Assembly (NCBI GenBank): GCA_963825005.1
Contig: CAWGRP010000004.1
Span: 1 to 32,000 of the forward strand
DNA: 32,000 nt
Direction of reading: 5' to 3'
DNA from: an uncultured delta proteobacterium
GTDB lineage: Bacteria; Desulfobacterota; Syntrophorhabdia; Syntrophorhabdales; WCHB1-27
Both the position numbers and the translations under genes were made by a program. The notes under the pieces are model-generated. The model saw only the letters and a program-made list of their open reading frames with translations, made no database searches and had not been told where the DNA came from. Positions 13,591 through 32,000 of the stretch are shown piece by piece (the stretch's first letter is position 1; each line of letters starts with the position of its first letter).

Positions 13591-14388
13591 CACCCCTCCA
13601 CATAGACGCTCACGACATAATCCTAATCGATTCATTCTTCTTTGAGGCTTGCCCAGAACCGCTTTGCCCAAGGGATCCTCGGTATCGGGACCAGGGCAGC
13701 ACGCACCGGAGGGTTTAACGGTGACTTTCGTGCTGCCAAGGCCGGACGCTTCTGCGAGCTTCTGGTATTCATCCATGCTAACGGCGCCGGCGATGCAGCC
13801 GACGTAGGCCTCCACGCTCTCTCGGACATCCTGGGGCAGATCTTTGAGCAGCGCCATATCGGAAATCGCCACTCTGCCCCCTGGCTTTAACACACGGTAG
13901 ATCTCCTTGAAGACTCTGCGCTTGTCTGCCGACAGGTTGACGACGCAGTTACTGATGACCACGTCCACGGAGCTGTCGGCGACGGGCAGGTTCTCGATCT
14001 CGCCGAGCCTGAACTCCACGTTTGAAATCCCGCTCTTCTTCGCGTTCTCCCGGGCTTTTTCGAGCATAGCGGGTGTCATGTCGACACCGATCACCCTGCC
14101 CGAGGAGCCTACCTTTGAAGCCGCCAGGAAGCAATCGAACCCTGCCCCGGAGCCCAAATCGAGCACGATCTCACCTTCACTGAGACTTGCCAGAGCAGTC
14201 GGATTGCCACAGCTTAAGCCCAGGTTGGCGTCATCAGGTATTGCAGCAAGCTCGACCTCCGAATAGCCGATCGATTTGGCAAACTGCTTGTTGTTGTCAG
14301 GGCCGCAACTGGTGCAGCAGCTTTTTCCCTTCTCGGCAATGCCGCTGTATGCTTCCCGCACGTTTTTCCTGATCTCCAGCTCGTCCAT
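13587..14388 (-). CDS. arsM: Arsenite S-adenosylmethionine methyltransferase (ArsM-like); C-terminal end disturbed by apparent indels
   Basis: [88 protein letters not shown]. Start at 14388 preceded by AAGGAGGAG. Confidence 0.9.
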
Positions 14389-15005: not shown

Positions 15006-15842
15006 ATGGCAGTCGGCAAGGAGCTCGGGCTGGAAGCCGTGCAGATCATGCAGAAAACGATCTTTAGCATACCAAAGATGGACTGTCCTTCAGAAGAGCG
15101 AATGATACGGATGAAACTGGACGGACTGAAGACAATCCAATCCCTGCGGTTTGACCTGCCGGGGCGTACGCTGGAGGTGTACCATACGGGTGGCTACGAT
15201 AACCTGCTCGAAGCCCTTGAAACCCTGCGGCTCAACGCAAAGGTCATTTCATCTGAACCAGTCGATGTGGTGAGCACAGGGGAGGTTTGTCGTCAGGAAA
15301 GCCGCGTTCTCCGGCAGGTTCTTGCCATCAACTTCTTCTTTTTTGCACTTGAGATGCTCACCGGTTTCATCGCCGGCTCAATGGGTCTTGTAGCTGACAG
15401 CCTGGATATGCTGGCCGATAGCATTGTCTATGTTCTTTCGCTGTTCGCTGTCGGAGGGACGGCCTCACGTAAGAAGAAAATTGCCGGAGCAGCCGGCTAT
15501 TTTCAACTGACTCTGGCCCTTTTAGGATTCGCGGAGGTTATCAGACGTTTTGTGGAACGCGGTGAGACGCCGGACTTTCATCTGATGATCGTCATTTCTC
15601 TGCTCGCTCTGGTAGGTAATTCGATCTGTCTCTATCTCCTTCAGAAGTCTCAAAGCCGGGAAGCCCATATGCAAGCGAGCATGATTTTCACGTCTACCGA
15701 TGTTATCGTGAACCTCGGCGTAATCACGGCGGGTGTTCTCGTGTACCTGACAGCTTCGAAATTGCCTGACCTGGCAGTAGGAACAATCGTATTCATACTC
15801 GTCGGAAGAGGTGCGTATAGAATCCTGCAATTGCGCAAATAG
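15006..15842 (+). CDS. Cation diffusion facilitator-like transporter with N-terminal HMA-like domain
   Basis: N-terminal KTIFSIPKMDCPSEERMIRMKLDGLKTI (metal-binding-like ferredoxin fold) followed by CDF-like FFALEMLTGFIAGSMGLVADSLDMLADSIVYVLSLFAVG. Confidence 0.82.
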   Translation: MAVGKELGLEAVQIMQKTIFSIPKMDCPSEERMIRMKLDGLKTIQSLRFDLPGRTLEVYHTGGYDNLLEALETLRLNAKVISSEPVDVVSTGEVCRQESRVLRQVLAINFFFFALEMLTGFIAGSMGLVADSLDMLADSIVYVLSLFAVGGTASRKKKIAGAAGYFQLTLALLGFAEVIRRFVERGETPDFHLMIVISLLALVGNSICLYLLQKSQSREAHMQASMIFTSTDVIVNLGVITAGVLVYLTASKLPDLAVGTIVFILVGRGAYRILQLRK

Positions 15843-15871: not shown

Positions 15872-16327
15872 TCAGCACTCTATAACCTGGCCGCCTAACT
15901 TCTTCCTGAGCTGACGGACGGGCTGCTCTTTGAGAAGCGGAAAAAGCCTTCTCTTTTCTTTGGGCAAGAAAATTACATCATACCCTTTCTTTGCCTCGGT
16001 CATCACGGTCGATACCACATCTTCCGTTTCTACCGGGCAGATTGCGAGGGAGACGCCGGTGTTGAGCGCCTTCTTGCGGAGTTCCTCTGCCTCTGCGCTC
16101 GCGCGAGCGAGCACCTGATCGCGAATGTAGAGTAGAAACTGCGCCTTACTGGGACGGGTTGCTACCAGGTCGTTGTGACCGTAGTGGTAAAGATCGGAAG
16201 TAAGGATCTGAAGCGCAACTATTTTTTTCGACGAAGCCCGGGCAAGGCGGAAAGCGGCCTCCACCGCGTCGTCACAGTCGGCGCCGGTCAAAACGAGGAG
16301 AATAGTATTCATAGGGCCGATCTTCAA
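15872..16327 (-). CDS. Universal stress protein-like small protein
   Basis: MNTILLVLTGADCDDAVEAAFRLARASSKKIVALQIL..., C-terminal PVRQLRKKLGGQVIEC; UspA-like layout. Confidence 0.6.
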   Translation of the reverse strand: MKIGPMNTILLVLTGADCDDAVEAAFRLARASSKKIVALQILTSDLYHYGHNDLVATRPSKAQFLLYIRDQVLARASAEAEELRKKALNTGVSLAICPVETEDVVSTVMTEAKKGYDVIFLPKEKRRLFPLLKEQPVRQLRKKLGGQVIEC

Positions 16328-16497
16328 TATAACCCCATTACCTGCAAAAACCAGAGGACAAGCACGGCTCCGACACCCAGGACAATGGCGATGTACTCGT
16401 CCAGTCGGTGGCGCAACTGTTTTGCCGCTGACTCTGCTTCGACCTTCTTCAAATCGGCTACGTCCGGACTTTCTCTATTTTCCCTATTTTCAGCCAT
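16324..16497 (-). CDS. 57-aa single-TM protein (below the ORF track length cut-off)
   Basis: Hand-translated: MAENRENRESPDVADLKKVEAESAAKQLRHRLDEYIAIVLGVGAVLVLWFLQVMGLY; sits between the UspA-like and YeiH-like genes, overlapping the UspA-like start. Confidence 0.6.
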   Translation of the reverse strand: MAENRENRESPDVADLKKVEAESAAKQLRHRLDEYIAIVLGVGAVLVLWFLQVMGLY

Positions 16498-17918: not shown

Positions 17919-20789
17919 TCACTTCAACCGCCATACTTCCCTGTATGCCAGCCTCTTAAGCAGCGTCTTGCGCAGGAAGTGTTCGGTGGTGCCGTTGACG
18001 CCGACCATCACGTCAACATTGTTTCGCGGATACTCCGCAAGGTTGGGTGTCCGCTTGCCCGCCTTATCTTCTATGTGCCAGGCCTGGATACGCTCGCCGT
18101 CGAAGTCATCGATGACGATCTTGAAATATCCTTCCGGGCCGGTATAGGTTCTGTTCTTCGCATCGAGGATAATCGGTTCGGGATTGTCGAGAATAAACTC
18201 ATTCAGCATGTAGCAGTGGCCGCAAACATCGGGCCGCATCACGTAGCGCGGATCATCAGCCCACGGCTTATCACGCTCAAGTTTCTGCACACCCGTCCAC
18301 GCATAGAGCGTCACCGTACCGCCCGCGAAATCACACGGAAGGTCAAGCTCTACATGGACGTCCTTGTACTGCATCATCACCTTCTGCTGGGACGGGCTGT
18401 ATTGAGGCAGCGTGTCGTAAACTTTCTGGTCAACGGGACCCAGTTGCTTGTCGGCCACCGTCTTTCCTTCACCGTCGATCAGAAGGAGACGCGCCGTCTT
18501 CCGGCCCGCATCGACACTTGCGACCCTGAGCTTGTAGTCGCCGAGCGCAGTCTCTTGCCCGGCTTTCAGCTCTATCTTCTCCGGTTCTTCATACGAGATG
18601 GTAAACGAGTCCATACCCGGACTGCCCATCTCCGCTATCTCCACAACGTCGGGACTCACCCACCGGGGGATCACGTAAGTCGCCCCCTCGGCGTAGACGT
18701 CGGGCAAAGAGTACTTCTGGCTCGCAAACGACTTATCGCCGTAGATCGGCTCATACTCTGAAAGTCCCGGCCCCAGGAGAATGTCGGCCCCGAATGCATT
18801 GCCGGAGTACTTGATGATGCGCATGGTTGCAACAGGCCTTCCCCAGAGCCATCGCGAGCCAAGAAAGCGGACCGCCTTACTCCCATCCCCAAGGGGAATA
18901 TCCTGCCAGAACAGGGGATTCCCGTCCCCCATCGGGAGCAGCTTCCAATAATCAATAGCCGCATGCTTTCTGACGACGAGGTAACTTTCCGTGCTCAGCA
19001 GATACGCCCTTTTCCCGAGGATGTATAAGGATTCGCCTGCAAGAGGCCGGACGTTCCTGTCGAGGCGCGACGTGTAGTACAAGCCGGCGGGAGGTATGAT
19101 GATCTTTCCCTTGTGATAGTCAACGTAGCTGCCCCGTATGACGAGGGCCTCCGCGGAGGTCAGCTTTTCTCCCTTGCGGTTCTCCACGAATTTACGCACA
19201 AGACCTCTTAGCTTGGGAACGAACGCGCAGTCCGGGTCGGGCGCGAACCACTTGGCCGACGCGATCGCGGGTGGATACGAAGTGAACTTCGATTTGACCA
19301 CCGGCACCCCGTACGTGGGGTCCGCAAGCCGTGTCAGAAATGTATCCTCCATCACCGATACAACAAGCTCACTCATACCGATAAAGAAGTCTGCGTTCTC
19401 TCTCCCTTCTTTCCACAGGATAAGGTTGTCGGTGCGTCTGAAGAACGCATCCCGCACATATGAGTTCTTCACCACATCGCTTTCGATCTTTCCAGCCACT
19501 ACCTTGAAATAGGGCCTGTCCCAGAAATCGGAGATCTTGATCGGCCCTGCGTAAGTCTCTTTATCGTTGGTCAGCTCGAACGCATCCTTGTTTTCCAGCA
19601 CCACGCGCTTCAACATACCGGTCATGGAATCGGGCTCGAGCCGGACCAGGTATCGTTTGTCCCTCGGCCAGGGCTCTCCGTCCTTCAGCTTCACGAGGTT
19701 GTGATAAATCATGAAAGAGACGGTACCGTTTGTCCAGCCCAGCGGCACGTCGTTTGCCCATGGCGCAAAATCAGAACCCTTGTACCAGGAGGGATCGACC
19801 ACGAGCTCTATGTGCAAATCAAGGTCGAAATCGGTGAGCGACATTCGCTCCTGGTCAGTCACCTTGTACTCCTGCTGCGTCACCGGCACGAGAAGCTTGG
19901 ATGCCAGCACCTTTTGGCCTGTCCAGTTGCGTACCTCCACCAGAATCCCGTTCTCCTTACGGAATGCATAAATTCTCTTGCTCCACCACCAGCGGTAGCT
20001 CTCCTGCCGGACCCCAACCACATACGGCCTGTCCAGCGAGAAGACCGCCTCCTTGATAACCGGATACTTCACCTCCGAGAAGAGCGCATCCTCATGTGTC
20101 ATCTTTTTTGTGGTCAGTCTCGTCGCCCCGTACTGGTATGAACTGGTGAGAAAGAAAGGTTCCTGCTGAGGGTTGACGCCTTCTTTCAAGTTCAGGTCCC
20201 GTGCCTTTGCCGGCTCAGGAAAAGAAGAAGAGACCGGCATTTCAGTCTGCCACCCGCCCGAGGGCGCGATCACGGCAAGCTCTCCGTAGGGCTTCCCGTA
20301 ATGATCCGTCGCGTAGTCGAACCAGAGGCGATATCCTGAATCATCGAGGAGGACCTTTCCCCTCTTCTTGACCGCAACGTCCGTCTTCGTTACCTGGGCA
20401 GTTCTGAGCGACAACAAGTAAGAGGTCTCTCCGAGAATCAGGAAGGGATCCCTTCGCAGAGGCTTCGCGTCCTGTGACGTGGACGACGCGTAGAAGAGGC
20501 CGCCGGCCGGAACAGAGACCTTGCTGTCTTTCACCTGGCTACCCCTGAGCACCACGCACTCCGCAAGCTCCTTTTCCTGGCCGTAATGATTCCTATGGGT
20601 CGTGTTGAGGAGGCCTCCGAGTTTGGGGATGTACGTCGCATCGTCAGCCGGGGGAAGGCCGTGTGGAGACTCTGTGCCCCATGCGTTGCCTCCCGCAAGG
20701 AGACCAATGATGAGTACCGCGGGAATAAGCAGGAGCGGGAGTATCCCTCGGTCGTACCGTTTAAGCAAACAAGCGATAAGGCTCAGCAT
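17919..20789 (-). CDS. 956-aa predicted secreted protein with an internal duplication; no family recognised (possible S-layer-like C-terminal region)
   Basis: N-terminal hydrophobic signal ILPLLLIPAVLIIGLLAGGNAWG. Repeat A: IPKLGGLL...ECVVLRGSQVKDSKVSVPAGGLFYASS...PLRRDPFLILGETSYLLS. Repeat B: VPKLRGLV...EALVIRGSYVDYHKGKIIIPPAGLYYTSR...PLAGESLYILGKRAYLLS. Confidence 0.8.
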   Translation of the reverse strand: MLSLIACLLKRYDRGILPLLLIPAVLIIGLLAGGNAWGTESPHGLPPADDATYIPKLGGLLNTTHRNHYGQEKELAECVVLRGSQVKDSKVSVPAGGLFYASSTSQDAKPLRRDPFLILGETSYLLSLRTAQVTKTDVAVKKRGKVLLDDSGYRLWFDYATDHYGKPYGELAVIAPSGGWQTEMPVSSSFPEPAKARDLNLKEGVNPQQEPFFLTSSYQYGATRLTTKKMTHEDALFSEVKYPVIKEAVFSLDRPYVVGVRQESYRWWWSKRIYAFRKENGILVEVRNWTGQKVLASKLLVPVTQQEYKVTDQERMSLTDFDLDLHIELVVDPSWYKGSDFAPWANDVPLGWTNGTVSFMIYHNLVKLKDGEPWPRDKRYLVRLEPDSMTGMLKRVVLENKDAFELTNDKETYAGPIKISDFWDRPYFKVVAGKIESDVVKNSYVRDAFFRRTDNLILWKEGRENADFFIGMSELVVSVMEDTFLTRLADPTYGVPVVKSKFTSYPPAIASAKWFAPDPDCAFVPKLRGLVRKFVENRKGEKLTSAEALVIRGSYVDYHKGKIIIPPAGLYYTSRLDRNVRPLAGESLYILGKRAYLLSTESYLVVRKHAAIDYWKLLPMGDGNPLFWQDIPLGDGSKAVRFLGSRWLWGRPVATMRIIKYSGNAFGADILLGPGLSEYEPIYGDKSFASQKYSLPDVYAEGATYVIPRWVSPDVVEIAEMGSPGMDSFTISYEEPEKIELKAGQETALGDYKLRVASVDAGRKTARLLLIDGEGKTVADKQLGPVDQKVYDTLPQYSPSQQKVMMQYKDVHVELDLPCDFAGGTVTLYAWTGVQKLERDKPWADDPRYVMRPDVCGHCYMLNEFILDNPEPIILDAKNRTYTGPEGYFKIVIDDFDGERIQAWHIEDKAGKRTPNLAEYPRNNVDVMVGVNGTTEHFLRKTLLKRLAYREVWRLK

Positions 20790-21112
20790 GTACAGTCCTT
20801 CCCTCCAATGCCTTCCAAAATAAAGAACGGCTTGATTTTCTTGAGCAGCGTCCGGTCCATGCCCGGCACCTGCAGCAACTCCTCGACCGTCTGAAAATCG
20901 CCGTTGTCTTTGCGGTACTTTACAATATTCTTTGCGAGTTCCGGTGTCATCAGGGGCACATTCTTCGTCAGATCGTCGGCGCTTGCCTTGTTGATGTTGA
21001 CAGTCTTTCCTTTAAGTTTCTCCTCCGCCGCCCAGGCGCTGATCGAAAGCACGAGAAAAAGACCGGCCAGCACCAAAACGAAAGCTACTCTCTTCTTTGT
21101 CATGACAGCCAT
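20783..21112 (-). CDS. Secreted ComEA-like helix-hairpin-helix protein (copy 3)
   Basis: Signal peptide KKRVAFVLVLAGLFLVLSISAWA then VNINKASADDLTKNVPLMTPELAKNIVKYRKDNGDFQTVEELLQVPGMDRTLLKKI; stop overlaps the 956-aa gene start. Confidence 0.88.
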   Translation of the reverse strand: MAVMTKKRVAFVLVLAGLFLVLSISAWAAEEKLKGKTVNINKASADDLTKNVPLMTPELAKNIVKYRKDNGDFQTVEELLQVPGMDRTLLKKIKPFFILEGIGGKDCTC

Positions 21113-21118
21113 CCTCCT

Positions 21119-22040
21119 TTACCACGTCCTCTGCAGTAGTACATATGCCGCGTTGTTTACATGCGCTTGGCCCGCGAATATCAGGACCAGCCGCAAGAGA
21201 AAGCCGCCCACCAGTAGCGCATAGAGGGCGACTGAAAATCGCATTCGATTTATAGCTCCTTTTCTCAAGACAAGAGCCATCAGGAACCAGCATGCCTAAA
21301 CCGAGGACGCCCGCCCACCATACCACGCCGTTCCCGCCTGTCACGAGATGGAGAAGGTCGCCACGCGATGGGCTGAAAAATGAAAACAATAGAAAGAGCA
21401 AGGTGAAGAGCAGATGAACAGGCAGCAATATCCGATAGCCCGATCGGAGCCAGAGCATAGGCTGCTCCATTGCCTCGGCAGGAGCAGCGCGGAGCGCTAT
21501 CACGCCGCCTGCCGCGAACCCCGTTGTCATCGCCGAGAAGCAGAAGAGGCCGGGTAGGGCCACATTTCTCCAAAGCGGAAGCGCCGAGGCGGAAAGGAGG
21601 ACGCCGGTATAGACGGATACCGCCAGGGCGACCGGCATCCCCGCAACTCCCAGTGCGCTGCGATAACTCTTCTTTCGCCATACGCTCCACCCCCCGATCA
21701 TTGGCAGACGAGCTTTCTGCGGTTCGGGGAGCCAGAAGAGTGCGTGTACAATGGAGATGGCGCCAAACAGGCTGAGGAGCCAAACGCCGAATGACATGGG
21801 AGAATCGGCGTTGAAGACGCGTAACGTGAACCAGAAGCGTGTCTTGTACATCAAGTCGAGAATGAGCATGGCGAGGCCGAAGGCGACTGAAAGCGGCGCA
21901 AGAAAGGCCGCGCTTCGAGAGCATACCTCGAATCCCTGCCCCTTCTTCCTGCTCGCCAGGACAGCGAGACAGAAGCTGCCGGCCCCCAGGCCCGCGAAGA
22001 AGAGGTCGAGCGCTACAGGAAGACCCCATGTCTCAACCAT
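21119..22040 (-). CDS. NrfD/PsrC-like integral membrane quinol-interacting subunit, frameshifted near 21270
   Basis: MVETWGLPVALDLFFAGLGAGSFCLAVLAS..., multiple TMs. After one base is removed near 21270 the frame reads LVLRKGAINRMRFSVALYALLVGGFLLRLVLIFAGQAHVNNAAYVLLQRTW* and ends at 21119. Confidence 0.85.
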
Positions 22041-22692
22041 CTGTTCCCTCCTCGGGGCCAAGCCTCTTCCAGAGCCATGCGAGCACGAGTGCTCCTGGAA
22101 TGAGACCGCCAAGCCACTTCCACGGCTGAAACGCGCGTACCGTATTGAGTGGCACGGGCTCAGGCAGTTGATAATCTCCGGGCGCGCCCTGAAGAGCATA
22201 GATCATATGGAGCCGTTCCTTTCTGCCGTAGGCAGGCGCATCCGGCCCTTTCCCATCGGGGTAGTAGGTGAGAGCATCGGTAGGGCACTTTGCGACACAG
22301 GCCGGCTCCTTACCCACGTCGATGCGCTGAATGCAGAAGCTGCACTTTCTCATTGTATGCTGGCTCGGGCTTTTTTTTGGAACCTGAAACGGGCAGGACT
22401 CTATGCAGTACCCGCAGCCGATGCATTTCGTTCTCAGGTGCTCCACGACGCTGTCATCCCTGCGGCGCAGGGCTCCGGCCGGGCATGCCGACACGCAGGA
22501 CGGGTCGTTGCAGTGAAAACAGGCGGTGGATGCAGACCATTCCTGCGCCTCGGGAAGATGGCCCGTCACGTGGCTCTTCACCCAGCGGAGTTGAATGCCG
22601 GGAGGGGCATCGTTTTCCAGTTGGCAGCCCACCTCGCAGGAGTGGCACCGGATGCACTTCTTTCCATCAAATAAAATCAGCCGCTCAGTCAT
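22033..22692 (-). CDS. 4Fe-4S ferredoxin-type electron transfer subunit with C-terminal TM anchor (PsrB/FdhB-like)
   Basis: CIRCHSCEVGCQ, CFHCNDPSCVSACPAGAL, CIGCGYCIESCPFQVP, CSFCIQRIDVGKEPACVAKCPTDAL; C-terminal WLGGLIPGALVLAWLWKR. Confidence 0.92.
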   Translation of the reverse strand: MTERLILFDGKKCIRCHSCEVGCQLENDAPPGIQLRWVKSHVTGHLPEAQEWSASTACFHCNDPSCVSACPAGALRRRDDSVVEHLRTKCIGCGYCIESCPFQVPKKSPSQHTMRKCSFCIQRIDVGKEPACVAKCPTDALTYYPDGKGPDAPAYGRKERLHMIYALQGAPGDYQLPEPVPLNTVRAFQPWKWLGGLIPGALVLAWLWKRLGPEEGTDG

Positions 22693-22764
22693 AGCTTGCT
22701 CAGTGTTTGGTGTTCAGCGTTCAGTCAACTGTTCACCGATTACCCTGATCGCTGTTCACGTTCT

Positions 22765-24918
22765 TCACGCTTTCACCAGCCTGCAACCGAATCCGTTGAA
22801 CTGGGCTGATACCTTGTCCCAGTTGGAAGGGATGATCGTGTTGATTGAAGTGCCCGCGTTTCCCGCAAAAGGGCTCGCCTTGGCCGGATGAGAAGGTGTC
22901 CAGACGAGTCCAGGCAGAATCATCTCACTCAGGGCAATCCTGACTTTGATCTTTCCCAATTCGGTTTCAAGATGGGCCCACTCGCCATCCTTCAGGCCCA
23001 GGCTTTTGACGGTATCAGGATGCACCTGCACGTAATTTCCTTTTGAAAACTGCGCCATGTATGCCGACCAGTTGGTGTAGGTGTGCTGCCAGTGCTGCAC
23101 CACTTTGCCCTGGAGGAAGATGAGAGGAAACGGCTTCGACTCTCCCGCATCCCCAAGCGGGCTCCCTTCCGGCTCCGACCACGCAATGGGTCCCAGCGCC
23201 GGGGAGCGAAGCTCCACTTTTCCATCTTCCGTGAGAAAGCGGTCATTCGGATAAAGCGTACCGTGCGTGCCAGGATGAGCCTCCGATGGACAGGGCCAGC
23301 TGATCCCGGTCGGCTCTTTCTTCAAACGCTCCAGTGTCAACCCGGACCAGGTCGGGGAGTGTTTCCTCACCATTTCAAAAATATCTTCTGGACTCTTCAG
23401 ATCCGGAAATTTTTCTCCGTTGATCTTTTTGCCGAGGTCAGCGTAAAAGCGCCAGTCTTCTGTCGTCTCTCCCGGGATGGGCACAGCCTGGTTGCGCCAG
23501 ACAATCTGTCGCTGCGCCCCGTACTGGGAACCTGAACTCTCGAACGGCATGGTGCCGGGGATAATGAGATGAGCGAGAGACGCCTCGTCGTCCATGAAGA
23601 AACCCCGGTAAACAACGAGGTCCACATTGCCGATCGCCTTTCGTACCCGGTTGGCATCGGGATAACGGCGGTAGCTGGAGTTCAAAAGCAGCACGTTCAC
23701 CCGTTTCTGTTCCATGGCAAAGAGAACTTTACGGAAACTGAGCGCGGCCGGCATGTCCTGGGCCCGGAAAGAATCCTCGAACGCTTCGATGCCTCCCGGT
23801 TTGCCGCCCTGGACATTCATGATCCCCTTTCCGGGACCGCTCAGATTGGCCGTCAGCGCCTGCAGGGCAATGATCGCACGCGCGCTCTGGATCGAATTGG
23901 TGTAGCGCGATATGGAGCCGCCGAGCCAAACCATCGTCTTCTTACTTGCGGCCAGGCGTGTGGCCAGTTCCACCACCTTCTCGGCCGGTATCCACGTGAT
24001 CTTCGCCACCATCTCCGGCGTGTAAAGCTCGGTTGCTTCAGCGAGTTCCTTGAACCCATTCACGTGTTGGGCAACGTAATTACGGTCATGCATGTTCTCT
24101 CTTATCATGAAGCGGATCAGTCCGAGCGCGAGAGCGCCATCGGTGCCCGGCCGCCCCATGAGCTGCTCGTCGCAGTGATTGCTGGTCGGTGTCCTGCGCG
24201 GATCCAGATAGATCACACGGACACCCTTGGCCCGGGCCTGATCGATCCAGCGTATGTAAGGCGGATACATCTCAGCAATATTTGCCCCGAACAGGACAAG
24301 CACTTCCGTATTCATCGCTTCGTCAAGCGTGGTTGTGGAAACAGGACTGCCGAGGCAGATGCGCAAGGCCGTCGCCGAACTCCCTATGCAGGTGTCTCCC
24401 GGCGAGCATATATCAGGGAACCCTGCTGCCCACAGTGCCATCTCCGCGGCGATCTCGCTCTCGTGTGATTCCCAGAGAGGCGCAAAGAGCGTTACCCGGT
24501 GCGCGTAGTCATCGGGGAATTCTTCCTTCACCTTTATGACCCGCTCTGCCACGGTATTGAGCGCTTCTGCGTAGGAGATACGCTTCCAGTTTGTCCCCTC
24601 GCGTTTCAGTGGATAAAGGATCCGGTGAGGACTGTAGGTGAGCTCCACCAGCGCCTGTCCCTTGGGGCACATCGTCCCGTCGGTCCAGGTATTGCCCGGG
24701 TTGCCATACGCGTTGACGACCCGGTCATTCCTGACCTGCACAAGCGTGGTACATCGCACCTGACAGAACTGGCAGCAGCTCATCACCTCGCGGTCGATCT
24801 GCGCCGGCGGCTCTGCGGCTGCCCCCGTCGTTATGCCGGGCGCGCTGAGAGCACCGGCTGCCAGTGCGCCGGCCTTCAGGAAATTCCGGCGGGTGATGCT
24901 CATCTGCCGTTTTTTCAT
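22765..24918 (-). CDS. Molybdopterin oxidoreductase catalytic subunit (Psr/Phs-like), Tat-exported
   Basis: SITRRNFLKAGALAAGALSA Tat signal; CCQFCQVRCTTLVQVRNDRVVNAYGNPGNTWTDGTMCPKGQA [4Fe-4S] motif; GDTCIGSS candidate Mo-ligand Cys region; intact ORF of 717 aa. Confidence 0.93.
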   Translation of the reverse strand: MKKRQMSITRRNFLKAGALAAGALSAPGITTGAAAEPPAQIDREVMSCCQFCQVRCTTLVQVRNDRVVNAYGNPGNTWTDGTMCPKGQALVELTYSPHRILYPLKREGTNWKRISYAEALNTVAERVIKVKEEFPDDYAHRVTLFAPLWESHESEIAAEMALWAAGFPDICSPGDTCIGSSATALRICLGSPVSTTTLDEAMNTEVLVLFGANIAEMYPPYIRWIDQARAKGVRVIYLDPRRTPTSNHCDEQLMGRPGTDGALALGLIRFMIRENMHDRNYVAQHVNGFKELAEATELYTPEMVAKITWIPAEKVVELATRLAASKKTMVWLGGSISRYTNSIQSARAIIALQALTANLSGPGKGIMNVQGGKPGGIEAFEDSFRAQDMPAALSFRKVLFAMEQKRVNVLLLNSSYRRYPDANRVRKAIGNVDLVVYRGFFMDDEASLAHLIIPGTMPFESSGSQYGAQRQIVWRNQAVPIPGETTEDWRFYADLGKKINGEKFPDLKSPEDIFEMVRKHSPTWSGLTLERLKKEPTGISWPCPSEAHPGTHGTLYPNDRFLTEDGKVELRSPALGPIAWSEPEGSPLGDAGESKPFPLIFLQGKVVQHWQHTYTNWSAYMAQFSKGNYVQVHPDTVKSLGLKDGEWAHLETELGKIKVRIALSEMILPGLVWTPSHPAKASPFAGNAGTSINTIIPSNWDKVSAQFNGFGCRLVKA

Positions 24919-24952
24919 GATCTACAGCCCTGACTCCAAATCGACACTCCCC

Positions 24953-27061
24953 CTATGCCTTCTTCGCGTGCGGAGAATCGGGCTCAAAAAGTTCATACAT
25001 GATGCGGCCTTCAAAATTGGGCGGCGGCACCAGGCCGTACATATGCATAATGGTGGGCATCACGTTCATCATGTGGCCACCCTTCGAAACATCGTTGTTC
25101 TTTTTTATGCCGGGACCAACCGCTATGAACGAGGTAAGCGCGTTGCCATGGTACCCGGTAAAATGTCTGCGCGGATTGTCCCATATCTGTCCGTCACGGC
25201 CGAAAGCGCCAAAATTAATCTGGTAAAGTCCGTCATTCTTCTTGCCCGGCACCTTGATTCCCGATGCATCACGAAAGCCGCAGAACTGCACGTCACCGGC
25301 ATACCAGCCGTAATCGCCCTTGTATATATTCTCAACCCGGTCTGCAATCTGTGTGTACTGCTGTCCTTCAGGGTCTTTGAGCTTCTTCAATTCGGCGATG
25401 ATTAAGTCGCGCAGCTTTTCATACTCGTTGTACTCCACGATGCCGTTCGGTTCGCGCCCCTTGAGGTTGATGAATATGCCCGGGTTCCAGGAAGTGTATG
25501 CCTTGGTCCTTGACCAGTCGATGTCATCGTTATCATACGTCCGCTTCTTGCCCTCCACCTCAGGCTTGACGTTGAGGAGCCCCAGTTTCATCAGCCATGA
25601 ATTGGGCTCGAAGTCCTTCTTCGTCGGTCCCCATGCGTGATCGGATATCATCATGAAGCACGTATCTTTGGGTAGTTCTTTCAGTATCCTTGCCAGCTCC
25701 TTGTCAACGTATTGTGTGAATTCCAGCATCAGCTTGCCGTTGCCGTATTTCTCTTCGTACTCCTCCGACCAGTCGGGATTGCCTTCAATGCGGGTCATGT
25801 TGTGGTTGAGGCGGTCATACGGCATATTGGAGAACCAGAAGAAGTCCCACGGCTTATTCTTCATCAGCCAAAGCACAATGTTATTCTGTTCGCGAGTTGC
25901 ATCGTAGCAGTCCTCGATTAGCGTCTCCTCTTCCTGGACGTAAGCGATAAACGCCGTATAATCGTATTCGAAAGGTACGTTCGGTGTCCGATAGTAGCCC
26001 ACCGCATCATATACCTCCTTCTGGAGTGAGGGCGGGTAGGTCCACCGATCGGTCGGCACGACAGGCCCGTCGAAGAACTGGTCAATCGGCTCGTGCCGTT
26101 CCGGCGCCGTGGGGTCTTGCAGAAGACGGTAACGATACAACTGCAGGGCGCCATCATCCGTATTAATCAGCTCCGGCTTCCAGCGGACGATAGCCCGCCT
26201 CCCATTCGGAAATTCAATGGGGACATACTTTGACCACTCACCCTCTTTCAGGGTCAGCTTGAGATCGCTGTATGCGATGGTTACCGTGTTGCCGGGATTG
26301 AGCGTTAGTTCAAGGGGAACTTGCTGGTCCTTACGGCGGATCGCGGTGGACACCTTACCACCCGAGAAAGTCACCTTGGTTTTCAAGGGGCCTGCGGCTC
26401 TGTGTTTCTCCTGGGTGTAATAGACGTGACCCATGTTGAATGGCTGATCGCCCAACCCTGGCGCGCCCTTGCCGGACAGCATGAAGCCATCCTTCAGCCG
26501 TTCCGGTGGCCAGGACATTGCCGTGCCGCAGAGGCCGACTTTCACGCCTCCCTCAGCCAGCATGAAAGGCACAGTTGGGGCGTGCAACCTGAAGAACCGG
26601 TTGATGCCCGAAGTCTGGAAGGCAGTCCGGTCATAGATCTGCCACGGATGCGATCCGAAGAAATTATTCTGGCCCGGACCTACTCCTGTATTGTAGGCAG
26701 CCCATGCGTCGACAGACATGCCGCGGAAAATATTTTCGAACTCCCCGTAACTGCCTTGCGTCAAGAGCTTCTTGAACGTGGGGAGTTTGCCCTGTTTAGA
26801 CCATTCAATTATTTTTTCCATGCTGCATGAGTCAAGGCCCATCAGCAGAATTTTCGGCTTCTTACCGGCCTTCGATCCCTTGCCCGTTCTCTCCTTGGCC
26901 GGGGCAGCACTCGACGCCTTTGCCGCGAGTCCGGCCACTGCGGTTCCCAGAATGCCGCCGGCCAGTTTTTTTAACGCACTGCGCCGGGACAGACCTTTAT
27001 TTTCGTCTATCGTGCTGTCATCCGCGCTATCATCGATGTTGTCATTGATGGTATCATCCAT
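24953..27061 (-). CDS. Tat-exported type I phosphodiesterase/nucleotide pyrophosphatase-family protein
   Basis: LSRRSALKKLAGGILGTAVAGLAAKASSA Tat-type signal; KILLMGLDSCSMEKIIEWSKQGKLPTFKKL; CFMMISDHAWGPTKKDFEPNSWL; GYHGNALTSFIAVGPGIKK. Confidence 0.88.
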   Translation of the reverse strand: MDDTINDNIDDSADDSTIDENKGLSRRSALKKLAGGILGTAVAGLAAKASSAAPAKERTGKGSKAGKKPKILLMGLDSCSMEKIIEWSKQGKLPTFKKLLTQGSYGEFENIFRGMSVDAWAAYNTGVGPGQNNFFGSHPWQIYDRTAFQTSGINRFFRLHAPTVPFMLAEGGVKVGLCGTAMSWPPERLKDGFMLSGKGAPGLGDQPFNMGHVYYTQEKHRAAGPLKTKVTFSGGKVSTAIRRKDQQVPLELTLNPGNTVTIAYSDLKLTLKEGEWSKYVPIEFPNGRRAIVRWKPELINTDDGALQLYRYRLLQDPTAPERHEPIDQFFDGPVVPTDRWTYPPSLQKEVYDAVGYYRTPNVPFEYDYTAFIAYVQEEETLIEDCYDATREQNNIVLWLMKNKPWDFFWFSNMPYDRLNHNMTRIEGNPDWSEEYEEKYGNGKLMLEFTQYVDKELARILKELPKDTCFMMISDHAWGPTKKDFEPNSWLMKLGLLNVKPEVEGKKRTYDNDDIDWSRTKAYTSWNPGIFINLKGREPNGIVEYNEYEKLRDLIIAELKKLKDPEGQQYTQIADRVENIYKGDYGWYAGDVQFCGFRDASGIKVPGKKNDGLYQINFGAFGRDGQIWDNPRRHFTGYHGNALTSFIAVGPGIKKNNDVSKGGHMMNVMPTIMHMYGLVPPPNFEGRIMYELFEPDSPHAKKA

Positions 27062-27141
27062 ACTACGCCCTCCTTATATGAGAAGCCCCGTGGGCTGATG
27101 TTCAATATTGGACCGGCTGGACTGTGACAAAACTGTACCTG

Positions 27142-27504
27142 CTAGCACTTGGACGGTTTGAGACTCGGCTCATCATCGTCGTCCCCATCACTCTTGGCTG
27201 GGGGCAGAAGTATGTCTCCCTTTGAATCAACCTGCAGCGACATCTTCTTGAGAATCTCCTGCGTCATGCCAGGCACCTTCAAGAGGTCATCAGTTTTTTT
27301 GAAGGCGCCGTTCTTGGTGCGGTAATCGACGATCGCCTTGGCGAGGACCGCCGTGACTCCGGGAACCTTGGCGAGCCGAGTCGCACTCGCTTTGTTCAGG
27401 CTCGTCTTTCCTCCTGCTTGAGCTTCCGCCGTAGCGGTATATCCCATCAGGAACAGGGCCGCCACCAGGATAAGTGCCAACAGACGATATGTTCTCGTAG
27501 GCAT
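27142..27504 (-). CDS. Secreted ComEA-like helix-hairpin-helix protein (copy 2)
   Basis: Signal peptide, then TSLNKASATRLAKVPGVTAVLAKAIVDYRTKNGAFKKTDDLLKVPGMTQEILKKM; acidic DGDDDDEP tail. Confidence 0.9.
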   Translation of the reverse strand: MPTRTYRLLALILVAALFLMGYTATAEAQAGGKTSLNKASATRLAKVPGVTAVLAKAIVDYRTKNGAFKKTDDLLKVPGMTQEILKKMSLQVDSKGDILLPPAKSDGDDDDEPSLKPSKC

Positions 27505-27615
27505 CTTTTCTCCTCCTTCTTAATCGTGATGGCGCACGGCGGGCAACAGGTCCTCATCCGCCATGTGCCGTCACACGCATTTCATACACGCCTATAGTCC
27601 ATCAGTTTATCTTCA

Positions 27616-27945
27616 TTAGTACCTTGGCAGCTTGGCCTCATCATCGTCGCCGCCGCTTTTCGCAGGCCCGAAAGCCAGGGCCGGCGCCACTGCATCGACC
27701 TTCTCCTTCGTCATGCCGGGTACCTTCATCAGGTCATCAGCAGACTTGAATGAACCCGATTTCGTGCGTGTCTCAACCATAGCCTTTGCCATGTCGCCGG
27801 AGATTCCCGGGACCTTTCCCAGTTGGTCCGCAGTCGCTGCGTTTACGTTCACCTTCGCCGGTCCTTGCGCGCACACGGCTGCTGCCAGGATAAAAGCAAA
27901 ACCCAGGCAAACAACAAACCCTGCAACTAATGTCTTCTTAATCAT
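27616..27945 (-). CDS. Secreted ComEA-like helix-hairpin-helix protein (copy 1)
   Basis: Signal peptide, then VNVNAATADQLGKVPGISGDMAKAMVETRTKSGSFKSADDLMKVPGMTKEKVDAV; acidic GDDDEAK tail. Confidence 0.9.
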   Translation of the reverse strand: MIKKTLVAGFVVCLGFAFILAAAVCAQGPAKVNVNAATADQLGKVPGISGDMAKAMVETRTKSGSFKSADDLMKVPGMTKEKVDAVAPALAFGPAKSGGDDDEAKLPRY

Positions 27946-28134
27946 CTCTCTGTCCTCCTTTTGTGTTTAGTTTGACACGTTAAATCCTGCGTTTTTCTCT
28001 GCTGTCTATTATCAGTCAACCAGAAACACGTACCGTATTAGGCCGGAACCGGGGAAGTCCTGGGCGATCTAAAATCAGCGTCCGAGCGCTCCCCCAGCTC
28101 CGCGAGGCCTGCGATACGATCTATATGTACATAC

Positions 28135-29496
28135 TTACTTCGCCATTTTCCAGATGGCCGGGCAGTCACCGCTCAAGGGTTCTGCCTTGCTCAGGTCTTT
28201 GCCGGCCAGCCCCGGATAATCCTTTCCATACTTGTAAGACCGATGAATCATGTTGGCGGCAAGATCCTCCCTCGCCGATACGCTGTGTTTCGCGTCGTCA
28301 TAGAAGCAGTTAATCTTGTCCCCTGGAAAAACAGGGTTAACCCATTCCCAGACCACTTGCGGCTTCGGGTCATGCGTAACCTCGAAGACGTGACCATGAT
28401 TGCTCGATGTCACCAGGATATTGCCGTTGGGAAGCTTCTGCGCCGACCCCTGGTACGTAGTATAGAAACTGTTTCCGATGACCGGCTCAAACTGCCAGAC
28501 AATCTTACCCGTCTTCGGATCCATCTCTACAACGCGGGAACGGTTTTTTTCCGGCCGTTTCCAGCCGTTGTCAAATATCTGAAAATTGCCGTTTTCAAGC
28601 CGCGTTACATGGTGAGGACCGAAGAGAATCTGATCTCCGTCGTCCACGAAGCCGGGTTTTTTGCCTTTGCCGTAGGTAGTCGGATTGCCCCAGCGATACT
28701 CGATCGCGCCCGTCTTGTGATTGATAAGGAAGAATTCGCCGAAATTTCGGGAATTGACGAGGATCTGATCGGTCGCAGGGATATAGTCGAGCGTGTTGAA
28801 ATGCGTCCAGTCAGGCACGTGCATATATCCGCTTGCTTTGGGCAGCTGGTAGTTGACGTTCAGTTTCTTCGGCCCCTTTCCTATGTGGTCCCAGGCATGC
28901 CACTCCCATACTACCTTCTTGTCCCTGTTGACCTCCTTCACGTAATCCGGCCAGAGGCCCGTATATTTCATTCCTTCGAATTCGAATTCCTTAGGCATGG
29001 TCTTCGGGTTACGCCCTTTCTTGATCGCTTCGGCAGCGCTCTTGTATTCCCAGCCCAGCACAAGAATATTCCCGTTCGGCATGATGTTGAAGCAGTGGTG
29101 CTGAACCATGGTCGGGGTATACTCCTTGTATTCCCAGACAACGTTTCCATCCCAATCGATTTCCTGAATTAGACCGGCGGTGCCACCGAACTTGACAGGC
29201 GCCTTGTCGGGGTCCGGCCTTCCGGCCCGCAGAAGATTCCCATTCGGCAGGAGCATCGCGAAAAGCCCCGGCATATACGGGCTCTTCCATGTATGGACGA
29301 CGTTTCCCTCCATATCGATGAGATAGGTGGTCGTGCTCAAACTGGGAGCAAACAACATGTAACCATCGTATGCCTTTTCCTTGTTGTATCTGATTAGTCC
29401 GGTTGGCCCGTAGAGCAGCTCATAGGCCCCTGCTGAAATTACTGAAACCGCGATAAACGTCATAACGGCTAACGCACACAAACATTTTTTGGACAT
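28135..29496 (-). CDS. Arylsulfotransferase (ASST)-family secreted protein
   Basis: MSKKCLCALAVMTFIAVSVISAGA signal; TTYLIDMEGNVVHTWKSPY, LLPNGNLLRAG, HHCFNIMPNGNILVLGWE, DWTHFNTLDYI, FGPHHVTRLENGNFQIFDNG. Confidence 0.88.
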   Translation of the reverse strand: MSKKCLCALAVMTFIAVSVISAGAYELLYGPTGLIRYNKEKAYDGYMLFAPSLSTTTYLIDMEGNVVHTWKSPYMPGLFAMLLPNGNLLRAGRPDPDKAPVKFGGTAGLIQEIDWDGNVVWEYKEYTPTMVQHHCFNIMPNGNILVLGWEYKSAAEAIKKGRNPKTMPKEFEFEGMKYTGLWPDYVKEVNRDKKVVWEWHAWDHIGKGPKKLNVNYQLPKASGYMHVPDWTHFNTLDYIPATDQILVNSRNFGEFFLINHKTGAIEYRWGNPTTYGKGKKPGFVDDGDQILFGPHHVTRLENGNFQIFDNGWKRPEKNRSRVVEMDPKTGKIVWQFEPVIGNSFYTTYQGSAQKLPNGNILVTSSNHGHVFEVTHDPKPQVVWEWVNPVFPGDKINCFYDDAKHSVSAREDLAANMIHRSYKYGKDYPGLAGKDLSKAEPLSGDCPAIWKMAK

Positions 29497-29929
29497 GCCT
29501 TCCCCCTCGTAAGAAGTTTTTATATTGAAGTGCCACACGGCCCTTCCACCAACTCTTTTCCCACCCCCTCTCAGCGTATAACTTGTTGCGCTAAACCAAG
29601 AAGCCCTATGCACGCAGCGTGCGTCTCTGTGAAGCGCGTTACAGTCTTCTCGACCGTCTGATACGTAGTAATCAAGCCGTAGGAAAATTATTACAGACGA
29701 TCGGAGAGATCCTGCTGATTACATGCGAACCCCATGCCAGCGTAAAGAGTCTCAGGATATTTTGTAATCGCCTGAAATTAAAGGCAAGTAGCTGCCCCGT
29801 GACCAGACGAGGAGAAGCCGGAAAGCAAGAAATGTAAAGCCTCCTGCACAGATGTGCCTGTAGCTGCACAGATGGTGATCGAGCTAATGGCCGCACAAAA
29901 CTGACTCTCTCCGTGGAAGATCTGCAGTT

Positions 29930-31291
29930 CTACATCTCCAGGCCGTACTGCGCCATCTTATCGTAAAAGGCGCGGCGGCTGATGCCGAGGAGGCGTGCGG
30001 CCATACTGCGGTTATTATCCGCAGCCTTCAGGGCTTTGACGATTGCTTTCTTCTCCGCCTCTTCAACCACCTGCCTCAAAGGCAGTGGCGTTCCATCCAC
30101 CCCACCGCTGGTCTCTTTCGCGGGACCTCGTTCAATGCTGAGGCAGTCGAGCGTGAGCGCCTCATCTTCGGCAAGAAGAACCGCTCGCTCCAGGATGTTG
30201 GCCAGTTCCCTGATGTTTCCCTTCCAGGGCCAGCTGTACATCGCCTCCAGCACGTTAGGTTTGATCGTGCTGATCTTCTTCTTGTATGCCTTGCAGAACT
30301 TGTTTAAGAAATGATCGATGAGGAGAGGAATGTCTTCCAGTCGCTCTCTCAAAGGAGGCAGGTGGAGAGGAACCACGGCCAGGCGATAGTACAGGTCATC
30401 ACGAAACATTTCCTCTTCTATCATTGGACGTAGATCACGGTTCGTCGCTGATATGAAACGCACGTCAATCTGGATTGTCTGATTTCCTCCAACGGGTTTT
30501 ATCTCTCTTTCCTGGATTGCCCGGAGCAGTTTCACCTGGGTGGAAAGTTTGATATTGGAGATCTCATCCAGGAATACAGTTCCCCCCTGGGCCTCCTCAA
30601 GCAGGCCTCTTTTGGCCCTTATGGCCCCGGTGAATGCGCCTTTGACATGACCGAAGAGCTCGCTCTCCAAAAGTGTTTCCGTCAACGCGCCGCAGTCGAT
30701 CGGCACAAAGGGATGGTCCTCCCGGGAGCTGTTCGCGTGAATCATCCGGGCCAGCAGCTCTTTGCCTGTTCCGCTTTCCCCTTCGATCAACACGGAGGCT
30801 TGCGAGTCGGATATCTTTTCAACCTTTCGCAGGAGTTCGTGCATCGCCCTGCTTGACCCAACGACCATCTTTGGGAACTCTCCGTTCTCTTCCTGAATGC
30901 GCAACGTATCCAGCTTCCGATGCAATTTTCCATATTCGAGTGCCCTGCGGAACAGGATCTCCGCCTCCTGCATCTTGAACGGTTTGGTGATATAGTGAAA
31001 AGCGCCGAGCTTTATAGCCTGCACTGCCGTCTCGATGGTTCCCACGCCGGTGATGATGATAAAAGGCAAGGTGGAATCGGAAGCTCTGACCCGTTCGAGA
31101 AGCTCGAGGCCGCTGAGGTCATCCATGGCCATGTCTGACAGGACAAGGTCAAACATGGTTTCTTCGATCGCCTTCCAGCCTTCCTCGCCGGACCCGGCAG
31201 TTGTCACGTCATAGCCAAGCCGGTTCAAGAATCGGGCAAGAACCTGCCTCATCTCCGGCTCATCTTCCACGATGAGAATTTTCTCAGCCAT
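29930..31291 (-). CDS. Sigma54-dependent (NtrC-type) response regulator
   Basis: Receiver domain ILIVEDEPEMRQVLARFLNRLGYDVTTAG...DLVLSDMAMDD; AAA+ GESGTGKELLARMIHANS and ELFGHVKGAFTGA; C-terminal Fis-type HTH NNRSMAARLLGISRRAFYDKMAQYGL. Confidence 0.97.
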   Translation of the reverse strand: MAEKILIVEDEPEMRQVLARFLNRLGYDVTTAGSGEEGWKAIEETMFDLVLSDMAMDDLSGLELLERVRASDSTLPFIIITGVGTIETAVQAIKLGAFHYITKPFKMQEAEILFRRALEYGKLHRKLDTLRIQEENGEFPKMVVGSSRAMHELLRKVEKISDSQASVLIEGESGTGKELLARMIHANSSREDHPFVPIDCGALTETLLESELFGHVKGAFTGAIRAKRGLLEEAQGGTVFLDEISNIKLSTQVKLLRAIQEREIKPVGGNQTIQIDVRFISATNRDLRPMIEEEMFRDDLYYRLAVVPLHLPPLRERLEDIPLLIDHFLNKFCKAYKKKISTIKPNVLEAMYSWPWKGNIRELANILERAVLLAEDEALTLDCLSIERGPAKETSGGVDGTPLPLRQVVEEAEKKAIVKALKAADNNRSMAARLLGISRRAFYDKMAQYGLEM

Positions 31292-32000
31292 GCTTTCTTG
31301 TTTCCACGCCAGCCTCTTTCATCGGCTCCGTCGAAGACTCACCGAGAGGGAGATCGATGAAAATGGTCGTCCCTTCTCCCATCTTCGATTCTACACGCAC
31401 GGACCCATTATGCTTCTCGATGATACGCTTCGAGATCGAGAGGCCGAGCCCGAAGCCCTTGTTCTTTCTTGCTGTGTAGAAGGGGTTAAATATTTTTGGC
31501 AAATCCTTTTCAGGTATGCCCATACCGGTATCAGCTATTCGGAGACAAACATTCTGGCTGCCGTTCTGCCTTTCCCTGGAAACCTGTATCCGGATGGTAC
31601 CTTTGTCCGAAATCGCCTGGATTGAATTGAGGATCAGGTTGACAAAGACCTGCTGCATCTGGTTGTCATCCCCCTCAAACATCACCGGCTCTGCAGGAAA
31701 CGCCTTCTCCACGCGAATCCCTTTCTGTCTTAATTGTTGTTTGCAGAGAGATAAGGACTCCTCAACCAGAGAAGATAAGTCAATAGGCGCATGTGCCGGC
31801 GGCCGTGGCCGTGTAAAGGTCAAGAGATCATCGATGAACTTTCCCGCCCGAACCGCATTCCGTTCGATCGCTTCCAGGCCCTCTTTGGCGCTTTCCTGGC
31901 ACAATTGCAGCTGGAGAAGTTCCTCTGTGTTGGCCAGTATGATACCCAGGGGATTGTTGATCTCATGGGCGATTCCCGCGGCCATCTCGCCCATGATCGC
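31284..32000 (-). CDS. Sensor histidine kinase, 5' part outside the window
   Basis: MGEMAAGIAHEINNPLG H-box, NQMQQVFVNLILNSIQAI N-box, IADTGMGIPEKDLPKIFNPFYTARKNKGFGLGLSISKRIIEKHNG; overlaps the response regulator start; open at the window edge. Confidence 0.93.
   Translation of the reverse strand, partial: AIMGEMAAGIAHEINNPLGIILANTEELLQLQLCQESAKEGLEAIERNAVRAGKFIDDLLTFTRPRPPAHAPIDLSSLVEESLSLCKQQLRQKGIRVEKAFPAEPVMFEGDDNQMQQVFVNLILNSIQAISDKGTIRIQVSRERQNGSQNVCLRIADTGMGIPEKDLPKIFNPFYTARKNKGFGLGLSISKRIIEKHNGSVRVESKMGEGTTIFIDLPLGESSTEPMKEAGVETRKHG

Follow-up and report, generated by a model that had tools for sequence, protein, structure and literature searches.

What activity holds together a row of genes that encodes an aryl sulfotransferase (AST)-family protein, several small exported helix-hairpin-helix (HhH) proteins, a molybdenum (Mo) enzyme complex, and an exported protein of 956 residues (P956)? 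The row lies in a 32,000-nucleotide (nt) stretch of an uncultured member of the Syntrophorhabdales (contig CAWGRP010000004.1; here called the window). An earlier note on this DNA read it as a possible undescribed extracytoplasmic redox and hydrolase module between positions 17919 and 29496, a reading centered on the Mo complex. The gene content and order given there are confirmed by the open reading frames (ORFs) of the window, with all nine genes at their places on the minus strand. However, the co-oriented unit does not end at 17919 but runs to 15872, so that the gene for a YeiH-type transporter had been left outside. This gene and those for a 57-residue and a 151-residue protein follow P956 with short gaps or overlaps, and they are conserved partners in related loci. 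As described below, the center of the module consists of the P956, YeiH, HhH, and AST genes, and the Mo complex is a recurrent but exchangeable accessory.

A core of P956, YeiH, HhH, and AST genes

One genome per species was scanned for P956, which yielded 78 distinct loci. Gene maps of these loci were made with tblastn and a simple ORF caller that sometimes missed small or overlapping genes, and the counts given here are thus lower bounds. The hosts belong to the Syntrophales, Syntrophorhabdales, Desulfatiglandales, Desulfobacterales, Desulfovibrionales (including the gut genus Mailhella), Acidobacteriota, Methylomirabilota, and Tectomicrobia, and three of them, namely Desulfosarcina variabilis, strain NaphS2, and Pseudodesulfovibrio karagichevae, have been brought into culture. 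The nearest locus is that of a Syntrophorhabdales metagenome-assembled genome from peat, with 85% identity in P956, and the full arrangement of the window is kept in relatives from the Syntrophorhabdales, Syntrophales, Acidobacteriota, and Tectomicrobia. Because the arrangement recurs in 78 loci from several phyla, a chance juxtaposition of genes was rejected, and the exported module can be regarded as genuine and conserved.

In all 71 loci with room for a further gene, P956 is directly followed by YeiH. Other partners were counted within 10 kb in the 39 loci that have at least 8 kb on both sides (full-flank loci). HhH genes are present in 39 of the 39 and AST-family genes in 37, usually as two and as many as five paralogues. 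A sigma54 regulator is found in 26 of these loci, the Mo catalytic subunit in 16, its NrfD-type membrane partner in 11, and a 702-residue phosphodiesterase-like protein in 5. These frequencies place the center of the module at P956, YeiH, HhH, and AST. The framing around the Mo complex had to be given up, as P956 and the HhH genes occur without the Mo subunit in most of the full-flank loci.

P956 is encoded at 17919 to 20789 (minus strand), and the stop codon of the HhH gene before it overlaps its start by 7 nt. It has no match in Pfam or NCBIfam, and an exact-sequence look-up found nothing on record. More than 245 full-length homologues share 56 to 88% identity with it, and all of the source names listed for them are “hypothetical protein.” Conservation is high, with a mean column identity of 64 to 69% across phyla. 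The duplication that the earlier note had seen is evident in the homology of the two halves (25% identity; E = 7e-31). A confident AlphaFold model (predicted local distance difference test score [pLDDT], 81.8; predicted TM-score [pTM], 0.80) shows an all-beta protein that starts with a signal-like helix and has a basic C-terminal helix at residues 933 to 955.

Fold comparison with Foldseek against the PDB gave a sole confident match, the DUF1608 domain of a Methanosarcina S-layer protein (3u2g). The match has a probability of 1.00, with an E value of 4e-6 for whole P956 and 5e-7 for repeat 2 alone, although the TM-scores are just 0.24 to 0.33. The tandem DUF1608 protein in question, MA0829, also consists of two tandem all-beta repeats, but these are ~270 residues long rather than ~470, and P956 differs further in being bacterial, periplasmic, highly conserved, free of a C-terminal membrane anchor, and equipped with a Cys/His site. 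No sequence match to PF07752 was found for P956 or nine of its homologues, even at an E value of ≤10. Sequence and profile searches of the PDB with P956 and its distant relatives were empty or returned spurious matches.

Repeat 2 carries the invariant residues C856-G-H858-C859, H905, E907, and D908, and the conserved Cys, His, and acidic residues are missing from repeat 1. Within the C-G-H-C-Y-M motif, residues 856 to 859 are encoded at 18213 to 18224, and H905 is encoded at 18075 to 18077. By its sequence, this motif has the look of a metal-binding loop, whether cupredoxin-like or of another kind, as well as of the CGHC of protein disulfide isomerase (PDI)-type proteins. An exhaustive profile search returned few clusters of full-length P956, along with single-repeat relatives of 380 to 560 residues that align to the full length of repeat 2 (HHalign, 100%) and keep C856, H858, H905, E907, and D908. 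Such relatives, of 380 to 610 residues, occur in metagenomes (P0139, P0152, P0155, P0162, P0262, and others), and H905 appears in them as C-P-x-G-H. Among 15 distant single-repeat relatives, one matches PF07752 with 18 bits, below the cut-off of 30, and another has an archaeal PGF-CTERM, which hints at a link, through the family of the P956 repeat, between the surface proteins of bacteria and those of archaea. The high conservation, the Cys/His/acid cluster, and the obligate coupling to a transporter argue for P956 as a putative enzyme or binding platform and not a wall layer.

The transporter encoded after P956 (16538 to 17704, minus strand) matches PF03601 with 181.5 bits (cut-off, 24.5), which supports membership at the level of the family; its score for the TIGR00698 subfamily, 114 bits, is below the cut-off of 232.6. 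The family is named putative sulfate exporter (PSE) in NCBIfam, and Salmonella has been reported to owe its sulfite resistance mainly to YeiH (PMC12880088). The module transporter shares PF03601 with the Salmonella YeiE-YeiH system and with TauZ of the PSE family. It differs from the Salmonella protein not only in its subfamily score but also in its setting, as there is no LysR regulator and the gene is always paired with those for P956, a 57-residue transmembrane protein, and a Cys-ended protein of ~150 residues.

The AST-family protein of the window (28135 to 29496, minus strand) is a six-bladed propeller of class A with a Sec signal and matches PF05935 (98.8 bits; cut-off, 24.2) and PF14269 (55 bits; cut-off, 27). 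In an alignment of 70 paralogues of both classes, conservation reaches 94 to 100% in five columns of His and two of Arg. The match to the solved AST-type enzyme Cpz4 is weak (26 bits), with one His aligned to a conserved His of Cpz4. The propeller and the export are shared with AssT of Escherichia coli CFT073 (encoded with DsbL/DsbI), DhAST of Desulfitobacterium, and Cpz4 of Streptomyces, and the His/Arg set may include counterparts of the catalytic His436 and the sulfuryl-binding His and Arg residues of the E. coli enzyme. However, the module proteins are very remote from these enzymes, occur as two to five paralogues of two classes, and are always found with HhH, P956, and YeiH genes rather than Dsb genes; the acceptor proposed for them here would be a protein tail. 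Characterized ASTs act by a sulfo-histidine ping-pong mechanism, and their in vitro acceptors include tyrosine, Tyr-containing peptides, and proteins. For the bacterial enzymes independent of 3′-phosphoadenosine-5′-phosphosulfate (PAPS), both the natural substrates and the role in physiology are stated to be unknown (PMC13426309).

Fixed C-terminal residues of the small proteins

The most informative feature of the module, which the earlier note had missed, is the fixed Cys or Tyr at the C-terminal ends of its small proteins. The three exported HhH proteins of the window, all encoded on the minus strand, match PF12836 (HHH_3) with 64 to 74 bits. HhH1 (27616 to 27945) has an acidic tail that ends in KLPRY and contains no Cys, and the same tail is found in one orthologue (L081). 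HhH2 (27142 to 27504) has an acidic linker and ends in EPSLKPSKC, and HhH3 (20783 to 21112) ends in GIGGKDCTC. Across the P956 loci, the last residue is Cys in 69 of the 71 small HhH ORFs. In the PSKC class, which includes HhH2, the acidic linker is followed by P-x-L-[SAK]-P-S-K-C in 32 of 34 proteins, and in the C-x-C class, which includes HhH3, the end is G-G-x-[DE]-C-[TN]-C without exception (35/35). The CTC end is likewise present in 120 of the 120 closest database homologues of HhH3. Apart from these C-terminal cysteines, the mature proteins of both classes contain no Cys.

The two classes differ in their gene neighbors. In 26 of 33 cases, the gene directly upstream of a PSKC-class gene is a class-B AST gene. 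The gene of the C-x-C class is next to that of the Mo catalytic subunit or NrfD in 15 cases and next to YeiH in 14, and a tetraheme cytochrome c gene and a DUF1573 gene come after it in at least 10 loci where no Mo complex is adjacent. A near-identical HhH3 protein (L081 to L083) is present in 140 blocks of a public collection; of three places given, two are JGI metagenomes and one is an ENA entry. The host population appears to be widespread, and the module is probably common in the environment.

Fixed ends are also found in small proteins without an HhH domain. The 57-residue protein encoded after YeiH (16324 to 16497, minus strand) has a single transmembrane segment and ends in MGLY; in its counterparts of 50 to 57 residues, the end is G-[LF]-Y in 26 of 28. 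It is followed in the window by the 151-residue protein (15872 to 16327, minus strand), which has no signal peptide and ends in VIEC, and 19 of 23 members of this family of ~150 residues have a C-terminal Cys. Elsewhere, an exported protein of 165 residues is encoded upstream of class-B AST genes and ends in Tyr in 19 of 20 cases, and a transmembrane protein of 66 residues in the P956 loci ends in Trp in 10 of 10. Neither the 151-residue nor the 165-residue protein has a match in Pfam or NCBIfam. Three families that had no name are thereby defined: P956, the Cys-tailed HhH proteins, and the Tyr- or Cys-ended small proteins.

The HhH proteins are at present misannotated. Where database homologues of HhH3 have names, these are “competence protein ComEA,” “ComEA-like,” or “helix-hairpin-helix domain-containing protein.” The window proteins have the HHH_3 domain of ComEA, which is a DNA-binding domain; the model for full-length ComEA (TIGR01259) gives them 49 to 55 bits, below its cut-off of 152. 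A competence or DNA uptake locus was rejected, as no other competence genes are present and the Cys tails and gene context are unlike those of competence loci.

Exchangeable redox partners and regulation

The Mo complex of the window is encoded on the minus strand by three genes. The catalytic subunit (22765 to 24918; 717 residues) is a Tat-exported protein of the Mo/W-bis(pyranopterin guanine dinucleotide) (bisPGD) kind with the domains PF04879, PF00384, PF01568, and TAT_signal and an invariant N-terminal 4Fe-4S Cys motif. It is followed by a four-cluster ferredoxin subunit (FeS; 22033 to 22692; Fer4_11) with a C-terminal hydrophobic helix and by an NrfD-type, quinol-interacting membrane subunit (21119 to 22040; NrfD domain). 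The earlier note had called this a complete Psr/Phs-like complex. The subunit set is indeed present, but orthology to PsrA or PhsA did not hold up: the best-scoring models are those for Fdh-alpha (308.3 bits), NasC (278.7 bits), and PhsA (213.8 bits; cut-off, 694), all below their curated cut-offs, and all source names are generic. From its sequence, the subunit is not demonstrably Psr or Phs. In an alignment to FdhH and FdhF, Cys177, a candidate metal ligand that is 100% conserved, sits at the selenocysteine position of FdhH. A formate dehydrogenase was rejected, as this Cys is followed by Ile and not His.

The nrfD gene is also not intact as assembled. It has a 1-nt frameshift near 21275 to 21282: as far as ~21282, homologues match frame −1, and from 21274 to 21131 they match frame −2. 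This second frame, which accounts for the last ~45 residues, supplies a normal last helix and a stop codon at 21119 to 21121, 7 nt before the start of HhH3, and close Syntrophorhabdales relatives have an intact nrfD of 292 residues. Two other genes of the window are split by apparent 1-nt shifts, one for a TtrA-like Mo subunit (7284 to 10086; two ORFs of 473 and 459 residues) and one for a protein like CoA-disulfide reductase (5648 to 7121; two ORFs). Because these genes are split as well, the frameshifts are likely to be indel errors of the assembly rather than marks of pseudogenes.

Two layouts of the Mo genes were found. The first, as in the window, has the catalytic subunit, FeS, NrfD, and HhH genes in this order upstream of P956. 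In the second, the catalytic subunit, HhH, FeS, and a cytochrome b561 are encoded downstream of YeiH. In loci with no Mo complex alongside (L022 to L024, L030, L034, L040, L047, L048, L072, and L080), an HhH gene whose product ends in C-N-C precedes genes for a tetraheme cytochrome c (Cytochrome_C554/c7) and for DUF1573 Ig-like proteins, of which there are one or two. The two layouts, the frequent absence, and the cytochrome c substitute together indicate that the Mo complex is not the defining activity of the module.

The 702-residue protein (24953 to 27061, minus strand) is a second accessory. It appears to belong to the alkaline phosphatase superfamily and to be of the NPP/type I phosphodiesterase kind, and the twin-arginine (RR) motif expected for Tat export is present. 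The earlier label of a Tat-exported phosphodiesterase is fair at the level of the family through the orthologues (67 to 79% identity), four of five of which match PF01663 with 56 to 64 bits (cut-off, 23). However, the window copy itself has no PF01663 match and a weak Sulfatase match, along with visible metal-site-like motifs, and a PDB search with it was empty or spurious. A second protein with a PF01663 match (128 bits; 699 residues) is encoded at 31 to 2130 on the plus strand and is marginally similar to the first over a short C-terminal stretch. A class-B acid phosphatase is encoded at 3151 to 3930.

The sigma54 two-component system reported upstream of the AST gene is present. It consists of a response regulator of 453 residues (29930 to 31291, minus strand) and the C-terminal part of a sensor histidine kinase (31284 to 31994, minus strand) that runs off the window. 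Orthologues of the regulator have the domains Response_reg, Sigma54_activat, and HTH_8, and full-length orthologues of the kinase have a periplasmic SBP_bac_3 domain together with PAS, HisKA, and HATPase domains. A −24/−12-like sigma54 promoter motif, TGGCATGGGGTTCGCA, lies at 29724 to 29739 (minus strand), ~230 nt upstream of the AST gene. Within the window alone, such motifs are no more frequent than expected by chance; the motif gains weight because nine other loci have it, in its strict form, immediately before AST genes. Some of the loci with the tetraheme cytochrome have a GntR regulator in place of the sigma54 system. Scans of the window for sigma70 promoters and terminators gave the same counts as shuffled sequences, and an Rfam scan found no RNA family.

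A possible sulfur relay, its alternatives, and surrounding genes

What might this combination do? The conserved core and the Cys and Tyr tails point, tentatively, to an undescribed, sigma54-induced relay in the periplasm in which a sulfur group is borne by proteins, a reading that we consider possible rather than probable. It starts from gene content, synteny, terminal motifs, partner adjacency, and conserved residues, all directly observed; the chemistry and its direction are what we infer. The small proteins would serve as swinging-arm carriers. The AST-like enzymes would move a sulfuryl (or related sulfur) group from aryl sulfates to the carrier tails, where the acceptors would be the phenol of Tyr on the Tyr-ended proteins and the thiol of the PSKC class. 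The C-x-C class, acting as a dithiol/disulfide or a persulfide, would exchange with the group so bound or resolve it and could be recycled by the quinol-linked complex of Mo-bisPGD and FeS subunits with NrfD or cytochrome b, or by the tetraheme cytochrome c. The sulfur oxyanion set free, sulfite or sulfate, would then cross the membrane via YeiH, with P956 as a periplasmic platform or enzyme at the transporter and the NPP-like hydrolase as an optional extra.

Precedents for Cys carriers are SoxY, which bears substrate on its C-terminal Cys for SoxB and SoxCD, Sud, which works with PsrABC, and the arm of DsrC. By analogy, the Sox system (SoxYZ, SoxXA, SoxB, and SoxCD) is also periplasmic, holds its substrate on the flexible C-terminal Cys of a small carrier, and employs a hydrolase and an Mo enzyme to process the group so carried, and the small exported proteins of the module resemble SoxY in having a Cys on a C-terminal tail. 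However, they matched HhH families only, without a SoxY family or fold assignment or a SoxZ partner; the fold is like that of ComEA and PsbU, and the ends are PSKC or C-x-C instead of GGCGG. Homologues of SoxXA, SoxB, and SoxCD are absent, the Mo enzyme is of the bisPGD and not the sulfite oxidase family, and the hosts are strict anaerobes.

The second comparison is with PsrABC and PhsABC, which likewise combine a Tat-exported Mo-bisPGD subunit, a four-cluster FeS protein, and an anchor of the NrfD (Psr-like) or cytochrome b (Phs-like) type. The gene for a small Cys protein of the periplasm adjoins those of the complex, which recalls Sud and Psr of Wolinella, and tetraheme cytochromes of the kind that takes the place of the complex in the Mo-less loci are known sulfur reductases. 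The differences are that the PhsA model gives 214 bits against a cut-off of 694, that the carrier is not a rhodanese, and that the complex is optional. The nameable components are members of known superfamilies, and the conserved core and tail motifs match no described system. The earlier statement that no characterized pathway has this combination agrees with the literature searched (for the gene combination, bacterial DUF1608 proteins, YeiH/PF03601, ASTs of the host taxa, and sulfur reductases accompanied by ComEA-like proteins), which contained no description of it.

Several points weigh against the relay. The AST-like proteins are, by sequence, remote from characterized enzymes (26 bits to Cpz4), and we know of no AST with a thiol acceptor. 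The window itself lacks both a class-B AST gene and the Tyr-ended 165-residue protein. By our estimate, the step from aryl sulfate to sulfite with menaquinol would be thermodynamically tight, and some hosts (Syntrophales and Methylomirabilota) are not known sulfate reducers. The role given to P956 is a guess, the Cys tails would suit the binding of metals or metalloids equally well, and the HhH domains are mildly basic and may bind DNA. From the earlier proposal of organic ester processing coupled to redox chemistry, what survives as the best lead is the connection of the module with both organic sulfate esters and redox chemistry; the Mo complex as its center does not survive.

The relay would matter in several ways. 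A conserved operon that pairs ASTs with Tyr- and Cys-tailed proteins and a transporter linked to sulfite makes the question of the AST role testable, and the three cultured hosts make experiments feasible. Hosts of the module abound in peat, groundwater, marine sediment, and the gut (Mailhella and Desulfovibrionaceae), and a route by which organic sulfate esters entered dissimilatory sulfur metabolism would be relevant to cryptic sulfur cycling and to the production of sulfide in the gut. A specific form of such a route is rather unlikely in our judgment: the AST-like enzymes would harvest the activated sulfate of aryl sulfates from peat, sediment, or gut onto the tails, the Mo enzyme or cytochrome c would resolve the thiol-bound group to sulfite, and YeiH with P956 would import the product, bypassing ATP-dependent sulfate activation. 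If this form were true, bacterial aryl sulfotransferases would gain the physiological role that has long been missing for them.

A different use of the same thiols, which we regard as unlikely, would be the handling of metals or metalloids. Soft ions, for example As(III), Sb(III), Hg, Cu, and species of Se or Te, would be chelated by the tails and changed in redox state by the Mo enzyme or cytochrome; the Cys/His site of P956 would bind metal, and YeiH would move the oxyanion. Vicinal and terminal thiols are classic ligands of soft metals, and the C856-G-H-C-Y-M motif of P956 with H905 looks like a metal site. A small further gain comes from the position of the unit in the window, where it adjoins genes for ArsR, ArsM, ACR3, and a TtrA-like Mo enzyme and a CDF transporter gene. 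However, this arsenic island is not syntenic elsewhere, and four relatives (L010 and L081 to L083) carry AST genes and TniQ at this place. Metal handling would also leave the two to five AST paralogues and the Tyr-ended proteins unexplained, and the module is under a sigma54 two-component system or GntR rather than a known metal resistance regulator.

A periplasmic pathway built around the Mo enzyme, as first envisaged, is quite unlikely. In it, the AST-like protein and the phosphodiesterase would attack an organic sulfate or phosphate ester or an extracellular polymer, the product would undergo quinone-linked redox chemistry, and the HhH proteins and P956 would have binding or accessory roles. 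The genes for this are all present and co-oriented in the window, and some relatives keep the full arrangement. However, 23 of the 39 full-flank loci lack the Mo subunit and 34 lack the phosphodiesterase, and the complex has two positions and two anchors, with a cytochrome c as its substitute elsewhere.

A structural role in the envelope is very unlikely. P956 would then form an S-layer-like or periplasmic lattice, with the HhH proteins tethering it to DNA or matrix or cross-linking it by disulfides, and the other genes would be separate. The tandem architecture shared with 3u2g, the sole confident fold match, speaks for such a role, as do the single-repeat relatives with a subthreshold PF07752 score or a PGF-CTERM. 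Nevertheless, the TM-scores are low, P956 has no Pfam match, and its conservation is unlike that of S-layer proteins. Nor would a lattice be expected to come with sigma54-inducible control, an obligate transporter, and a conserved Cys/His/Glu/Asp cluster. There is similarly little to recommend redox chemistry of phenolic or humic compounds without sulfur transfer, in which the propellers and the Mo enzyme would act on polyphenols or quinone-like compounds and the Tyr and Cys ends would be redox active or form adducts: ASTs bind phenols, Mo enzymes of this superfamily include phenol-transforming members (transhydroxylase), and record titles place the hosts, many of them aromatic degraders, in peat, fen, groundwater, sediment, and gut, but the obligate partner is a YeiH/PSE-family anion transporter tied to sulfite and sulfate, the His/Arg set of the ASTs is conserved, and the conserved set includes no quinone- or aromatic-ring enzyme.

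Beyond the end of the unit, an island of arsenic or sulfur type extends from 7284 to 14388 on the minus strand. Apart from the split TtrA-like Mo subunit, it encodes an FeS protein like ArrB, TtrB, or DsrO, an ACR3-type permease of the SBF family, an ArsR/SmtB regulator, and an ArsM arsenite methyltransferase. The CDF transporter gene (15006 to 15842, plus strand) is divergent from the module, and in the closest relatives, the four named above, this place is taken by two class-B AST genes followed by TniQ.

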